From IMG/VR virus record IMGVR_UViG_3300045988_086956, positions 1-33,652 of that record: a DNA stretch of 33,652 bases. The stretch is one strand, 5' to 3'. The translations under genes and the position numbers were made by a program. This document shows positions 27,314 through 31,771 of this stretch, in pieces. The first letter of the stretch is position 1. Each line of letters starts with the position of its first letter. The notes beneath the pieces were generated by a model, which had not been told where the DNA came from, made no database searches, and worked only from the letters and a program-made list of their open reading frames with translations. The DNA is from a virus.

Positions 27314-27532
27314 TCAATCAACAAAGACTTCTTTACGTGTCTTTGGGTTTATATCCACTCTACGTCCTGTCTTATAGTCGATAAATCCAGCCTGAGTCGC
27401 AGGATGCTTAATAACTGTCTCAGCTGATTTCTTAGTTCTGAGAGCTTTCTTTAGCTTAAAATTCATAATGAGTGATTCGATTAAAATCACTGAAAATGCT
27501 GTTCCTACTGCAATAATTTGTAAATTGTTCAT
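27314..27532 (-). CDS. Small membrane protein, hypothetical
   Basis: 72 aa with an N-terminal TM segment. Confidence 0.55.
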   Translation of the reverse strand: MNNLQIIAVGTAFSVILIESLIMNFKLKKALRTKKSAETVIKHPATQAGFIDYKTGRRVDINPKTRKEVFVD

Positions 27533-27556
27533 GTTATAATTCCTTTTTGTTCTTTT

Positions 27557-27841
27557 TTAAATAGCTGTTCTTTGCCAATTCTCGTGATACCATTCAATAA
27601 CTGCATCACGAGGAAATTTGTCACGCTTCCCTTCAATTCGTGGGAAGTCTTTGTGTCGGTAGAAACGTTCATCAAAAGTTCCAGTATCTTTAGTACCTAA
27701 GAGCATTTCAGCACATTGAGACTTGTTTAGCTCCATTGGAAACCGTCTCTTTTCATCTGTCACAACGTGCATGACCTTTAATGCTCTATCCATCAGACCA
27801 GCTTCAAACTGATCCAATAGTTGATTCATTAGATCATTCAT
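27557..27841 (-). CDS. DNA-binding protein, DUF771/excisionase-like
   Basis: The pattern ELNKSQCAEML...FPRDAVIEWYHENW resembles small phage excisionase-like HTH proteins. Confidence 0.4.
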   Translation of the reverse strand: MNDLMNQLLDQFEAGLMDRALKVMHVVTDEKRRFPMELNKSQCAEMLLGTKDTGTFDERFYRHKDFPRIEGKRDKFPRDAVIEWYHENWQRTAI

Positions 27842-27861: not shown

Positions 27862-28230
27862 TTATATGTGAGCCTGATTGCCGTCAGGCTTTTTTTCTTT
27901 GCCCCAATATTCTTTTAAATTGACCGACATCACAGCAGCAAGATTTTTCTGTTCTGTCAAAATCTGTCTTTGATATGGTGCTAGTCCAGCTTGTCGCTCC
28001 TCCTCCGTCTTCGGTAGATAATAGCCACTAGGATGAGCTTTTTTAGCTACGATTGGCTGCCTAAAGGTCACTCGCAAGCTCTCAATCACTTCTTTTAGCT
28101 TTCGCTTTGAAAGACCTGTGCTTATTCTCAATTCGCTGGCTTGAATTGGTAAATCAAAGCTAGCACCGTTTTTGATAGCGTTTAAAACTTTGATTTCAAT
28201 TTCTGTCATATCTCTGATGTAATTCATCAC
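27862..28230 (-). CDS. Hypothetical early protein (winged-helix-like)
   Basis: 122-aa ORF overlapping the stop of the cro-like gene. Confidence 0.55.
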   Translation of the reverse strand: MMNYIRDMTEIEIKVLNAIKNGASFDLPIQASELRISTGLSKRKLKEVIESLRVTFRQPIVAKKAHPSGYYLPKTEEERQAGLAPYQRQILTEQKNLAAVMSVNLKEYWGKEKKPDGNQAHI

Positions 28231-28439
28231 TCTTCCTCCAAATCTACCCAGCTATCGGAAATTCGCAGCACATCACAAACTCGATTTTTGAGTTTATCAC
28301 TGCCCTTCCCATACTTTAATAACTCTGAGATGGTTGGTTTTTTGACTCCACAAGCTCGTGCTAAATGGGTTTGCGTCATGTTCTCTTCATTCAGCTTGTC
28401 CTTGACAAGTTGAATCCATTTTTTATGTTGTTGACTCAT
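28227..28439 (-). CDS. Cro-like XRE-family HTH protein
   Basis: MTQTHLARACGVKKPTISELLKYGKG is a classic HTH_3 segment. 70 aa. Confidence 0.7.
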   Translation of the reverse strand: MSQQHKKWIQLVKDKLNEENMTQTHLARACGVKKPTISELLKYGKGSDKLKNRVCDVLRISDSWVDLEEE

Positions 28440-28457
28440 ATTTTTCCTTTCTAAATT

Positions 28458-28466
28458 TGGTATAAT
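28458..28466 (+). promoter_or_regulatory. Extended -10 promoter TGGTATAAT for the 227-aa gene
   Basis: Read directly. A GGAG RBS lies 8 nt before the ATG at 28494. Confidence 0.5.
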
Positions 28467-28493
28467 AAAATAAAAACGATTGGAGAATTTCTT

Positions 28494-29177
28494 ATGAAAC
28501 TTAATGTACTTATTGAGTTTAGAGATGCCCGAACAACCATTACAATTGATACTCCTTCAAAATGCCCCCACTGTGGCAGAACCATGTCCCCTCAACACGT
28601 TGGACAAAGTACAAGCTCTGAAAGTACAAGTGCCTCAGAAGAAGGAAGATTTTCCGTTATTTTTCGATGTTCTTTTGAAAACTGCTTAAAATATTTTGTA
28701 ATAGAATACATCCACGATAATTATGAAATAGCAACGATGGTAGACTATTCATACCGTCCACCTATCAAGGTAAAACTCCCTGAAAATATAGAGAAGGTTT
28801 CTCCCGTTTTTGTTGAAATCTATTCTCAAGCAACGGTTGCAGAAAGAGAGGTATTAGATCAAATAGCAGGCGTCGGCTATCGCAAAGCAGCCGAATTCCT
28901 CATAAAGGACTACGCAATTTCCAAAAATCCATCTGACGAAGAACACATCAAATCAATTATGCTTGGAAAAGTAATCGCTGACTACTTGAATGATTTTCCA
29001 AAAATTCAAGCTTTAGCAAAATCCGTCGCTTGGATTGGAAATGATGAAACTCATTATGTCCGCAGACATGACGATAAAGATATCCGAGATTTAAAGAAGT
29101 TCATTCTCTCAGCGGCTCAATTTATTGCTGCTGATTACGATGCGGACGAAGCCTTGGCTTTCACTTCTTCTGATTGA
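28494..29177 (+). CDS. Zn-ribbon plus DUF4145-like (HEPN-related) protein, candidate prophage defence gene
   Basis: CPHC...CSFENC four-Cys ribbon. C-terminal half has YRKAAEFLIKDY...VAWIGNDETHYVRRHD. Own promoter. Opposite strand to the surrounding early genes. Confidence 0.6.
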   Translation: MKLNVLIEFRDARTTITIDTPSKCPHCGRTMSPQHVGQSTSSESTSASEEGRFSVIFRCSFENCLKYFVIEYIHDNYEIATMVDYSYRPPIKVKLPENIEKVSPVFVEIYSQATVAEREVLDQIAGVGYRKAAEFLIKDYAISKNPSDEEHIKSIMLGKVIADYLNDFPKIQALAKSVAWIGNDETHYVRRHDDKDIRDLKKFILSAAQFIAADYDADEALAFTSSD

Positions 29178-29269
29178 GAAATCTTAGCATCCAACTCATC
29201 CACCTTTTCAGCAATATATGTCACGGTCCTCAATATTTCATTGAGGGCTGTTCTTTCTAGTTCATTCAT
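29135..29269 (-). CDS. 44-aa helical small ORF (not in the track)
   Basis: MNELERTALNEILRTVTYIAEKVDELDAKISQSEEVKAKASSAS. SD AAGGTGGGTG. Overlaps the 3-prime end of the 227-aa gene by 43 nt. Confidence 0.4.
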   Translation of the reverse strand: MNELERTALNEILRTVTYIAEKVDELDAKISQSEEVKAKASSAS

Positions 29270-29309
29270 ATTTTCACCCACCTTTCCAATTCTTTCCCCT
29301 TTCTATTTT

Positions 29310-29318
29310 TGTTATAAT
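29310..29318 (+). promoter_or_regulatory. Extended -10 promoter TGTTATAAT for the 176-aa gene
   Basis: Read directly. AAAGGAG RBS at 29334-29340. Confidence 0.5.
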
Positions 29319-29348
29319 TGACTTATTATTACTAAAGGAGATAGTTTT

Positions 29349-29879
29349 ATGCCTATTATCACTAATGAAAATGTCCAAATCTGGACGCTCTATGCGACAG
29401 TTGTTATTGCAATCGTTGGTTTTATTTTCAACACAATATCCCTCTGGCAAACAAAGAAAGCAACCGAGGATATAGCAAAACCATATATCAATGTTTACGT
29501 TGATGCTTACGCTGTCAAATCACAACAACGAGTTTATGCATTCAAAAACTTTGGGCATACGCCAGCGTACATCAAAGATATTAAAATTGACGGTAAATTA
29601 GATAAGTATAATAGCAAACATAACTTCCGATCACTAATTGGTAACATGATTGCTCCGGGTCAGAAGTTAACATCATCTATACATCCAGACTATAAAGGCA
29701 GTATTACATTAAAAATCACCTATACTGATAGCAAGAGACGTCTATATACTGATAGCTTTAAACTCAATGCAGGAATAGCATCTGATATGCTCTATACTGT
29801 CAATGAATCAAATAAAAGTGATAATCCTGCAAGTGCTATCCGTCAATCGACAATGGCACTGTTACGTGACCTACGTTAA
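29349..29879 (+). CDS. N-terminally anchored membrane protein, Sie-like superinfection exclusion candidate
   Basis: TM segment WTLYATVVIAIVGFIFNTISLW followed by a beta-rich domain. Own promoter and RBS. Confidence 0.6.
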   Translation: MPIITNENVQIWTLYATVVIAIVGFIFNTISLWQTKKATEDIAKPYINVYVDAYAVKSQQRVYAFKNFGHTPAYIKDIKIDGKLDKYNSKHNFRSLIGNMIAPGQKLTSSIHPDYKGSITLKITYTDSKRRLYTDSFKLNAGIASDMLYTVNESNKSDNPASAIRQSTMALLRDLR

Positions 29880-30019
29880 ACAATTCTGTAAGCTTCGTTT
29901 ACTTGTATTTCAACTTTAATTATTTCCTTGTCTATTGTATTGGCAAGGATATTATTTTTCATATCAATAGCATCATCAATATTGTTAGCAAAAATATGAT
30001 AAGATACTTTAGCTTCCAT
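29876..30019 (-). CDS. 47-aa small ORF, first ORF downstream of the leftward switch promoter (not in the track)
   Basis: MEAKVSYHIFANNIDDAIDMKNNILANTIDKEIIKVEIQVNEAYRIV. SD GGAGGTGAGGGAG. Its stop overlaps the stop of the 176-aa gene. Confidence 0.45.
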   Translation of the reverse strand: MEAKVSYHIFANNIDDAIDMKNNILANTIDKEIIKVEIQVNEAYRIV

Positions 30020-30067
30020 CTCCCTCACCTCCTTTTTAAAAAATTAACTAAAAAGTTAGCGAACTAC

Positions 30068-30096
30068 TTGACAAATTCTAAAACTAGTTTTAGAAT
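30068..30096 (+). promoter_or_regulatory. Rightward promoter TTGACA-17-TAGAAT with an embedded perfect 20-bp palindromic operator (30076-30095)
   Basis: TTGACAAATTCTAAAACTAGTTTTAGAAT. The palindrome is TTCTAAAACTAGTTTTAGAA. Confidence 0.6.
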
Positions 30097-30217
30097 AAGA
30101 ACATAAAGAAAAGACTTACTAAAATGTAAGGTCGACCTATAAAAACGACGCCAATCAATTTTTTAAGGCTTTATTTTTTAGTTGTCTTGTTCGCTAACTC
30201 TTTAGCTTACGATATAT

Positions 30218-30246
30218 ATTTTAAAACTAGTTTTAGAATTTGTCAA
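30218..30246 (-). promoter_or_regulatory. Leftward promoter TTGACA-17-TAAAAT with an embedded near-palindromic operator (30219-30238)
   Basis: Its reverse complement is 28/29 identical to 30068-30096. Confidence 0.6.
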
Positions 30247-30251
30247 TAGTT

Positions 30252-30270
30252 TTTTAAACTAATTTTAAAA
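30252..30270. promoter_or_regulatory. Degenerate third operator-like site
   Basis: TTTTAAACTAATTTTAAAA resembles the operator with a 1-nt deletion. Confidence 0.35.
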
Positions 30271-30306
30271 TATTTTTTCGTATTGCTTAGAAAGGTTGAT
30301 AAATCA

Positions 30307-30654
30307 ATGTTCTTAGCATTCGACAGAATAAAAGAATTAGCTGATAAACAAGGGATATCTTTAAATATTTTAGAAGAAAGACTTGGATATAGCACAAATT
30401 ATCTTTACAGTTTAAAAAAAGGGAATCCTAAATCTGATAGATTGCAAGAGATTGCTGACTATTTCAGTGTATCTACTGATTATCTTTTAGGTAGGACGGA
30501 TAATCCAGCGATTGCTGGAGGAGGAAGTGAACCGGATGATATCGATAAAATCATAGACCGTGCTATGTTCTTCGATGGAAAGCCTCTAACCGATGATGAC
30601 CGTCGAGCCCTCCGCGGAATAATCTCAGGGTATATGAATAGCAAAGGAGATTGA
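30307..30654 (+). CDS. XRE-family phage repressor (CI/ImmR-like)
   Basis: HTH segment ISLNILEERLGYSTNYLYSLKKGN. The ATG at 30307, preceded by an AAAGG RBS, is preferred to the TTG at 30283. Confidence 0.8.
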   Translation: MFLAFDRIKELADKQGISLNILEERLGYSTNYLYSLKKGNPKSDRLQEIADYFSVSTDYLLGRTDNPAIAGGGSEPDDIDKIIDRAMFFDGKPLTDDDRRALRGIISGYMNSKGD

Positions 30655-30655
30655 G

Positions 30656-31771
30656 ATGTCTCATAAAAATCAAATTGAAATCTATCAATTTAACAGTCGG
30701 GCGAAATATTGGCTAGTTAGAGCAGATGGCGGAAAATATTACGATGATTTTAAATACAATCACTTCATCTCTATTCATCACAACCAAGTTACGCTTGCAG
30801 ATTTGCAGACAACTGACCTACTCCTCACAACAGAAAAAACTATAGAGCACTATAAGCAACAAATAGCGAGAGTGTATCAAGACAAAAGTCTATCAAAGCA
30901 CCAAATTACATTTACTGCTAAACGACTCTATAGATTTATAGAAGATATGAATGTAGGAGATTACGTCGTAGTTCCATCGTTTAAGTCGAATTATTTTTTA
31001 ATCGGACAAATTACAAGTGATGTATATGAAAAAGATATGCCAGACGGACAAGTGACCCTAAATCACGGATATGAACAATCTGAAGATATTAAACGTCGAA
31101 ATGTCAGATGGATCAATGAAGTCCCTCGTTGGAAAGTAAACTCGAAATTTCTATACAGTACACTGACAGTTCATCACACTATCTTTAATATCACAGATTT
31201 ATCAAAATACATCAATGGTCTCATATCTCCGCTTTACTTCAAAGATGGAAAATTACACCTTCAGTTGAGAGTTAACACCAAGGAACCTATCACATCAAGT
31301 ATGTGGAAAAATCTTTATTCTATCATCGATGAGTATAAAAACCCTGAAATTGATGAGGAAATAATTGCTACATCTAATGTTGAGAGTCCAGGTGAAATAA
31401 CCCTACAATCCATAAGTCAATTCATATCGGACAATCATTGGATGCTGAACTCAGGCTTAATAGGACTAGTACTTCTGTTTGGAGATATTGATTTCAAAGG
31501 TATTAAAGTAAAAGGACTTTTTCCTTATTTACAACAAAGAAAAACAGCCAGATTGGAAGAACGCAAACTGACTGTAGAAGTTGAAACGATGGAAAAAGAT
31601 GCTGCCCTGAAAGATATACAGCGAGAAGTAGAAATAGAAAAAACTCATAAAGAATTAGAATTACTAAGAAATGTAAGGGCTTTTGAAATAACCGTCGACT
31701 CTCCTAATGTCTCTTACGAAAACGTACCCCAAACGCAAATGGGTTCCGATGAGAATCAGGGTGAGGGATGA
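30656..31771 (+). CDS. 371-aa protein of unknown function (soluble N-domain, hydrophobic segment, charged coiled-coil tail), candidate abortive-infection/defence effector
   Basis: The ATG lies 2 nt after the repressor stop and has an AAAGGAG RBS. No motif could be assigned. Confidence 0.7.
   Translation: MSHKNQIEIYQFNSRAKYWLVRADGGKYYDDFKYNHFISIHHNQVTLADLQTTDLLLTTEKTIEHYKQQIARVYQDKSLSKHQITFTAKRLYRFIEDMNVGDYVVVPSFKSNYFLIGQITSDVYEKDMPDGQVTLNHGYEQSEDIKRRNVRWINEVPRWKVNSKFLYSTLTVHHTIFNITDLSKYINGLISPLYFKDGKLHLQLRVNTKEPITSSMWKNLYSIIDEYKNPEIDEEIIATSNVESPGEITLQSISQFISDNHWMLNSGLIGLVLLFGDIDFKGIKVKGLFPYLQQRKTARLEERKLTVEVETMEKDAALKDIQREVEIEKTHKELELLRNVRAFEITVDSPNVSYENVPQTQMGSDENQGEG

Follow-up and report, generated by a model that had tools for sequence, protein, structure and literature searches.

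Two neighboring plus-strand genes of a Streptococcus phage, here called A and B, lie between the early lytic promoter and the cro-like gene in a 33,652-nt stretch of viral DNA (IMG/VR record IMGVR_UViG_3300045988_086956; hereafter the window). We consider it rather probable that A and B are two unrelated, swappable cargo genes ("morons") occupying separate units of a recombination hotspot (28467-30027), A being a remote relative of the abortive-infection protein RAZR and B an independent resistance factor. An earlier reading of the same DNA (the original prediction) had proposed that the two genes form a two-gene defense/exclusion cassette, and it is on this pairing that our results depart from it.

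Two Plus-Strand Genes in the Early Region

Judging from its megablast matches, all 76 of which are Streptococcus phages, the window is a temperate Streptococcus phage of the "Javan" prophage type. The window is presented reversed: the lytic genes are on the minus strand, and the lysogeny module (repressor at 30283-30654, a 371-aa open reading frame [ORF], an M78 peptidase and an integrase) is on the plus strand at the right end. Reading the sequence confirmed both plus-strand ORFs together with the extended -10 boxes and GGAG sites that had been assigned to them. A and B had been called the only plus-strand genes left of the switch, which holds for ORFs of at least 100 aa that do not overlap minus-strand genes. 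AT skew is positive across A and B, as it is across the plus-strand lysogeny genes. Two small minus-strand ORFs absent from the original prediction (orf48 and orf50) interleave with A and B. The features of the region, including predicted promoters and ribosome-binding sites (RBS), are the following:

28227-28439, minus strand: cro-like helix-turn-helix (HTH) gene, 70 aa (Pfam HTH_3; phrog_1468, 2.1e-16), left flank of the cargo region
28436-28493, plus strand: promoter/RBS module before gene A, with extended -10 TGGTATAAT at 28458-28466 and GGAG at 28482-28485
28467-30027: variable cargo region of 1561 bp with two units in tandem; in each, a cargo gene on the plus strand converges with a small ORF on the minus strand
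28494-29177, plus strand: gene A, 227 aa, ATG start (phrog_1305, 1.5e-58)
29135-29281, minus strand: orf48 (phrog_4488, 7.5e-24), probable ATG at 29269 (44 aa), overlapping the 3' end of A by 43 nt
29223-29251, plus strand: putative terminator-like hairpin after the end of gene A; its T tract is weak (pattern scan)
29310-29340, plus strand: promoter/RBS before gene B, with extended -10 TGTTATAAT at 29310-29318 and GGAG at 29337-29340
29349-29879, plus strand: gene B, 176 aa, ATG start (phrog_9607, 3.3e-66)
29876-30028, minus strand: orf50 (phrog_24874, 1.6e-6), probable ATG at 30019 (47 aa), overlapping B by 4 nt
30068-30096, plus strand: near-consensus rightward promoter TTGACA-17-TAGAAT, facing the leftward promoter and overlapped by the operator copy at 30075-30096
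30246-30218, minus strand: leftward (lytic) promoter TTGACA-17-TAAAAT, matching 11 of 12 consensus positions and overlapped by the operator copy at 30218-30239

Both extended -10 boxes fit the pattern TGnTATAAT, and the distance from GGAG to ATG is 8 nt for both genes. A TGnTATAAT box is found 32-37 nt before B in 22 of 26 homologous loci, despite differing sequence further upstream. The -10 box of gene A is not private to this gene, because it lies in a flank common to related phages with other cargo. A generic -35/-10 promoter scan of the window listed neither site, since neither has a good -35 box, and an Rfam scan of the window returned zero matches. The sequence TGNTATAAT occurs 6 times in the window (1.84 +/- 1.38 expected; 6 reached in 1 of 100 shuffles). 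Further plus-strand copies at 27532-27540 and from 27841 onward overlap minus-strand RBS-to-ATG spacers, and downstream of the copy at 27841 lies a terminator-like hairpin on the plus strand that has a run of T (27870-27891). We discarded these two copies as cargo promoters, as they are probably by-products of the spacers; they could be there by chance, mark a vacant cargo site or belong to a small antisense RNA.

In the genetic switch (30040-30283), a 22-nt palindromic operator, ATTCTAAAACTAGTTTTAGAAT, is present three times (at 30075, 30218 and 30250), and a 17-nt inverted repeat (30048-30064 and 30189-30205) is shared with Javan457. The near-consensus leftward promoter is located where it had been predicted, with A and B between it and cro, and orf50 is the first gene that it meets. 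A minus-strand promoter scan between this promoter and cro found none of comparable strength, so it is reasonable to think that the lytic transcript must traverse A and B in antisense to reach cro. The repressor ORF starts at a TTG (30283) with no RBS, the start being ATG in Javan457, and a TAAAAT is found at 30266-30271, which suggests that the repressor mRNA may be leaderless.

A Cargo Hotspot between the Early Promoter and cro

The homology of the window with the phages Javan457, Javan110 and Javan26 stops at 28466, the last base of the -10 box of gene A, and resumes at 30028, the start of orf50. The cro-like gene on the left side is 80-99% identical to its counterparts in the same three phages. 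Between the flanks, the content is as follows:

This window, 1561 bp: A with orf48, B with orf50
Javan457, 88 bp: promoter and RBS, plus 25 codons left over from a cargo gene of the Javan26 type
Javan110, 546 bp: 119-aa plus-strand gene with a convergent 54-aa ORF
Javan26, 660 bp: 156-aa plus-strand gene with a convergent 54-aa ORF

Javan457 was considered as an empty site and rejected as such, as it retains the TGnTATAAT promoter, the RBS and the 25-codon cargo remnant.

Parts of the promoter/RBS stretch of gene A (~28436-28505) recur at 79-97% identity before other cargo genes (loci L001, L007, L011, L013, L016-L018, L020-L022, L025 and L026). Nearly the same stretch stands before A in the window and before B itself in L018 and L020. 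The early-region slots hold varied cargo, mostly behind copies of this module, and all the cargo genes that we saw point against the lytic operon:

L016 and L017: PD-T7-4 homologue (PADLOC, 3.1e-16 in L016)
L021:7439-8104 and others: TIR-like 221-aa protein (PADLOC TIR effector, 5e-15; no Pfam family)
L018:1038-1760: 240-aa protein containing HExxH, no family assignment
L007:5438-5920: 160-aa protein with multiple transmembrane helices, no family assignment
L013: DUF2513 protein
L033:1775-2134 and L035:1717-2187: 119-aa and 156-aa proteins, no family assignment

Shared flanks, exchanged content and a recurring promoter module therefore indicate two tandem cargo units within a recombination hotspot. 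The antisense cargo genes that belong to no family are candidates for prophage-expressed functions. Our literature search found nothing on a hotspot between the early promoter and cro. TIR-like proteins of 221-228 aa are encoded near B in prophages of the S. parasanguinis group as well as in a distant metagenomic phage (L037:918-1604), whose B relative is just 25% identical.

Gene A Is a Remote Relative of RAZR

The protein encoded by gene A is organized as follows:

residues ~1-84: Cys4 zinc ribbon
residues 85-98: linker
residues 99-227: DUF4145/HEPN-like domain

The proposal that A combines a four-Cys ribbon with a DUF4145/HEPN-type module is supported by a sub-threshold Pfam match to DUF4145 (E=2.7e-4, 21.4 bits, residues 125-203), by profile-profile alignment (hhalign, below) and by Foldseek; profile searches and structure prediction thus recover a DUF4145/HEPN-like fold as a remote match. 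The AlphaFold2 (AF2) model of A (predicted local distance difference test [pLDDT] of 76.8) presents a beta-rich N-terminal domain and a helical C-terminal domain. Searching with the full-length model, Foldseek returned nothing at E<=0.001 and did not recover RAZR; its useful matches were two HEPN proteins, 2q00 (probability 0.91, TM score 0.63) and 1wol. The A-family profiles matched only zinc-finger/RPB9 entries among solved structures, with weak matches to the RPB9 zinc ribbon (E ~0.09), and did not reach RAZR.

The family of A is large. The word-indexed database holds 1554 homologues of A (against 50 of B), and an exhaustive profile search yielded 2375 clusters (50% identity, E<=1e-3), nearly all of 215-250 aa and matching end to end. 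Across 72 diverse relatives, residues C24, C27, C59, C64, G126, R130, E134, K138, I161, H187 and K201 are invariant and W180, G182, N183, D184 and E185 nearly so; the motifs YRKAAEFLIKDY and WIGNDETH carry most of them (R130, E134, K138, G182, N183 and H187). The two domains evolve at different rates: mean pairwise identity is 52% in the zinc ribbon vs 82% in the HEPN domain among close relatives, and 20% vs 45% among distant ones. Mosaic relatives are only 37-40% identical to the window protein over the zinc ribbon and 90-98% identical over the HEPN domain (39% and 98%, respectively, for P0065).

This architecture has been described. The defense protein PD-T7-4, listed as "Zn finger-HEPN" in a supplementary table (PMC9519451), was renamed RAZR (ring-activated zinc-finger RNase) and characterized in 2026 (PMC13017515). 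RAZR-Ec from E. coli UMB1727 is a single 219-aa protein (PDB 9Y9C; PMC9519451, PMC13017515). RAZR works as a single protein and acts by abortive infection: its Cys4 zinc-finger domain, likened to the RPB9 zinc ribbon 1QYP, senses ring-shaped phage proteins (portal and Gp77), and its DUF4145/HEPN domain cleaves RNA, R146 and H154 (R-x7-H) both being needed for defense (PMC13017515). The zinc-finger domain is the most variable region and sets phage specificity (PMC13017515). A survey of HEPN domains from 2013 found the motif "mostly conserved (80%)" in DUF4145 (PMC3710099). The original prediction had not recognized the pairing of A and B as a described system; for A, the architecture is that of RAZR/PD-T7-4 (PMC9519451, PMC13017515).

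The link between A and RAZR passes through a bridge protein of 226 aa from S. infantis (L016:5067-5744), encoded directly upstream of a B homologue and behind a copy of the promoter module of gene A. This protein matches the PADLOC PD-T7-4 model over almost its full length (3.1e-16, which also serves as a positive control for the model), Pfam DUF4145 (1.1e-14) and the RAZR chain 9y9c_OA (phmmer, 3.7e-9). When the A-family alignment was compared with the alignment of this canonical PD-T7-4-like family, hhalign gave a probability of 87.9% (E=3.3e-6) over 149 columns, which start at the first CxxC, take in the second Cys pair and the linker and reach GN...H. A direct comparison of the A family with the HEPN region of RAZR-Ec (residues 76-193, a fragment taken from the phmmer alignment) gave E=0.044. 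The A family and the canonical family do not detect each other by tblastn (E<=1e-4) or with family hidden Markov models (HMMs; E<=1e-3), and phages SM1 and IPP16 each carry one gene of either family at different places.

Since hhalign matches the two families and the PD-T7-4 model recognizes only 1 of the 72 relatives, A is best described as a remote homologue with RAZR architecture that falls outside PD-T7-4 as currently modeled. On these profile comparisons, gene A is a remote relative of RAZR/PD-T7-4 from a large sister family that the PD-T7-4 model misses. The A family keeps the histidine of the R-x7-H motif (H187, invariant). The canonical arginine is absent across the family, so that its chemistry may differ from that of the RAZR RNase; alternatively, this branch may be an RNase, perhaps with a different basic residue in place of the arginine. 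By the precedent of RAZR, the zinc ribbon of A would act as a specificity module, and a defense role for gene A appears plausible.

Gene B Encodes a Membrane-Anchored Protein

The protein encoded by gene B comprises the following parts:

residues ~9-31: transmembrane helix
residues 47-140: immunoglobulin (Ig)-like beta-sandwich
after the sandwich: disordered stretch
C terminus: conserved helix (IRQSTMALLRDLR)

The AF2 model (pLDDT 76.6) shows the same order, with a long N-terminal helix that includes the transmembrane segment, a sandwich of six strands, the disordered stretch and the C-terminal helix, which is among the best-conserved parts of the protein (IRQSTMALLRDL). The B family is small, with 50 matches, and all those with a name are from Streptococcus. 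Weak relatives (L028-L032; family HMM E-values of 2e-38 to 4e-12) were found in Eubacteriaceae, Bacteroides fragilis and mycobacterial genomes, which suggests that the fold family extends beyond Streptococcus. Even the relative at 25% identity occupies the same antisense position and adjoins cro-like HTH genes.

B had been predicted to have one N-terminal transmembrane helix and a beta-rich body in the manner of Sie-type exclusion proteins. The AF2 model bears out the helix and the body; the Sie-type assignment finds no homology and an opposite predicted orientation. Sie2009 was rejected as a homologue of B (BLASTP E=17; hhalign probability of 0.2%, covering the transmembrane helix only). In the 18 residues before the transmembrane helix, Sie2009 has 7 lysines or arginines and 33 of 41 members of the B family have none, whereas all 41 have 2-4 after the helix. 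Following the positive-inside rule, the body of B is predicted to face the cytoplasm, opposite to that of Sie2009. A search of the literature found no B-like streptococcal exclusion protein. According to its model, B is an Ig-like membrane-anchored protein with no detectable relative of known function.

Proposed Function in the Lysogen

The orientation of A and B toward the repressor gene, each behind its own extended -10 promoter and RBS, points to probable expression in the lysogen from these promoters, independently of the lytic operon. In A, the fast-evolving and swappable Cys4 zinc ribbon would probably recognize a protein of an incoming phage and the conserved DUF4145/HEPN-like domain would probably be the effector, making A a putative sensor-effector protein of abortive infection. 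B would most likely be a stand-alone, prophage-expressed factor of superinfection resistance acting at the inner face of the membrane. Upon induction, the lytic transcript may interfere with A and B in antisense. Any A protein already made would outlast induction, so the phage, to protect itself, would also need proteins of its own that do not trigger A.

Several observations weigh against this interpretation. The promoter calls are sequence matches, predicted rather than mapped, and the Pfam score of gene A (21.4 bits) is below the curated cut-off of 23.1 bits. The PADLOC PD-T7-4 model (PDLC04109) does not match A at E<=0.1 and its single match among the 72 relatives has E=1.3e-3. The position of RAZR R146 corresponds to A179 in A and is occupied in the family by A, T, S, V or other non-basic residues, never by a conserved arginine; the AF2 model is weakest exactly at the GNDETH motif. 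For B, Pfam, PADLOC and NCBIfam scans returned no matches, including no defense model, and Foldseek searches against PDB and viral models returned only a generic "transmembrane helix plus beta-sandwich" (archaeal pilins, TRAP, PmoB and unnamed phage proteins). A canonical RAZR-like gene stands directly upstream of B in L016 and L017. The defense roles suggested for both genes derive from protein architecture and from the neighbors in the hotspot. A is a divergent, model-undetected branch of a described kind and B is an uncharacterized candidate.

Alternative Readings

A first alternative is that A and/or B serve lysogeny control or host fitness, as a DNA-binding regulator, as a leader of the repressor transcript or as a membrane protein of lysogenic conversion. 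Morons are functionally diverse. In PHROG and RefSeq the A family carries the label "DNA binding protein", and a pattern scan found no terminator-like sites between gene B and the repressor gene, which would allow transcription to run on into cI. However, a Pfam scan of A revealed no HTH or other DNA-binding family that would back the label. The cargo is also dispensable, as the slot of Javan457 is reduced to a 25-codon remnant, and a PD-T7-4 homologue and a TIR-like effector are found among the sister cargo. Finally, the contrast between a rapidly varying zinc ribbon and a much slower effector domain is typical of an arms-race sensor. We regard lysogeny control or host fitness as an unlikely role.

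It is also conceivable that the functional units are the convergent pairs, A with orf48 and B with orf50, in which the cargo would be made in the lysogen and the small protein, as the first lytic product, would act at induction as an antidote that switches the cargo protein off. The tighter of the two links is that between B and orf50: at least 17 of 24 genomes have an orf50 homologue after B (17 by ORF scan; tblastn adds L016), with B identities ranging from ~56% to 98%. About 30 of the 37 streptococcal phage records with an A relative have orf48, adjoining A wherever coordinates were compared, and in the Javan110 and Javan26 cassettes, too, a minus-strand ORF, here a different one of 54 aa, overlaps the 3' end of the plus-strand cargo gene. 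The partners, however, are not faithful: orf48 follows unrelated cargo (the HExxH protein in L018 and the TIR-like protein in L021) and turns up in over 20 phage records that lack an A relative, Javan224 has an orf50-like ORF but no B match, and the most remote B relative has an unrelated 60-aa neighbor.

The conservation of orf48 is itself limited to the N-terminal part. Over its first 31 residues, identity is 90-97% in most of the 61 records of streptococcal phages, which come from several host species, even where the adjoining A relative is just ~34% identical, and this part coincides with the right flank of the slot of gene A. This restriction fits a flank of the recombining backbone. Because the hairpin at 29223-29251 falls within this stretch, the constraint may be on the nucleotide sequence, acting as an RNA element or as a flank for recombination. 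Overall, the small ORFs look mainly like flanks, and we find it quite improbable that they are antidotes.

The last alternative is the cassette of the original prediction. A and B would then form one two-gene system comparable to RexA/RexB, with a sensor/effector in the cytosol and its partner in the membrane. In the window they do lie side by side in the same orientation. We searched with family HMMs for A-family genes within 6 kb of B in 24 species-representative streptococcal genomes and found none (0 of 24). In the phage collection (tblastn), A relatives were found in 47 records and B relatives in 12, with both in a single record, Javan366, where the two families are separated by cro and other genes; 46 of the 47 A-carrying records lack B and 1 of the 12 B records has A. 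A and B are thus not co-conserved, an outcome that the original prediction had listed as counting against it, and they do not constitute one system. Each gene, moreover, has its own promoter and RBS, and RAZR acts as a single protein (PMC13017515). Some support for pairing comes from 2 of the 24 genomes (L016 and L017), which carry a canonical zinc-ribbon/DUF4145 gene directly upstream of B. That gene belongs to a different family than A, but the arrangement makes a loose functional affinity between zinc-ribbon/HEPN proteins and B conceivable. A single two-gene system is very unlikely; the pairing is a coincidence of two neighboring cargo units.

Implications

The reading that we prefer, two independent swappable cargo genes in a hotspot, can be extended into a bolder set of claims that we advance only tentatively and do not expect to hold in full. 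The site between the early promoter and cro would be a dedicated defense hotspot of streptococcal prophages, whose lysogen-only cargo meets the opposing lytic transcript at induction. B, perhaps along with its convergent small ORF, would be a new membrane-anchored anti-phage determinant. The arginine-less A family (2375 clusters) would be an immune sensor with a remodeled active site (N-D-E-x-H plus R130, E134 and K138) in place of the canonical HEPN RNase site.

If A is active, RAZR-type immunity would reach a very large Gram-positive sister family missed by current defense-finding models, and a family without the arginine thought essential in RAZR would raise a question on HEPN chemistry. 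The conserved flanks and the shared promoter module also offer a positional handle on prophage resistance genes in streptococci, which include pathogens and oral commensals. Gene B and several unannotated cargo genes are ready candidates for such resistance genes.

Other Features of the Window

Two additional ORFs deserve mention. The 371-aa ORF (30656-31771, plus strand), located between the repressor and the M78 peptidase, matches PADLOC PDC-S02 (E=2.3e-17) and phrog_10226; based on these matches, it may be another prophage-borne defense candidate. Near the left end, a small minus-strand ORF at 575-706 encodes a 43-aa protein that has one hydrophobic helix and a strongly basic tail (MKISEIADLMVATGTLLTGIASVIMAIKKEPKERKPRKAKRFK); just upstream on the same strand is a TGATATAAT box (724-732). 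This protein has the look of a small membrane toxin or holin-like peptide.

Comparison with Known Systems

RAZR is the closest known system for gene A. In both, a single protein of about 220 aa begins with a Cys4 zinc ribbon and ends, after a linker, in a DUF4145/HEPN domain, and A has the conserved histidine of GN...H. In A too, no part varies more than the zinc ribbon, which behaves like a module that can be exchanged, and the gene is on a mobile element, probably with its own promoter. The homology of A with RAZR is, however, transitive only (A family to canonical family to RAZR-Ec). The motif of A reads W-I-G-N-D-E-T-H, with two near-invariant acidic residues and no equivalent of R146, and its zinc-ribbon domain is longer.

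The canonical PD-T7-4-like family of streptococci (SM1 gp7 and L016:5067-5744) shares the architecture and size of A and likewise occupies early-region cargo slots, behind the same promoter module in L016 and L017. It differs from A by its LRxIGNIGAH motif and its strong matches to DUF4145 (1.1e-14) and PADLOC PD-T7-4 (3.1e-16).

B resembles the superinfection-exclusion protein Sie2009 of the Lactococcus phage Tuc2009 (172 aa) in size, in its single N-terminal transmembrane helix and in being prophage-encoded and oriented with the lysogeny genes. In contrast, Sie2009 has a strongly basic N-terminal flank, from which an external body is predicted, whereas B has a neutral or acidic N-terminal flank and lysines after the helix. 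The gene of Sie2009 lies between repressor and integrase, and B lies on the cro side of the switch.

Finally, the hotspot itself can be compared with two cargo sites of temperate phages. Lambda rexAB sits in the immunity region. Defense hotspots have also been described in P2 prophages (PMC9519451). As in these cases, a fixed site of a temperate phage has conserved flanks and interchangeable cargo, some of it related to defense, and the cargo is probably made in the lysogen. Here, however, the site is located between the early lytic promoter and cro, such that the lytic transcript would have to cross the cargo in antisense. The TGnTATAAT box of the cargo promoter lies in the shared flank, and a convergent small ORF stands beside each cargo gene.

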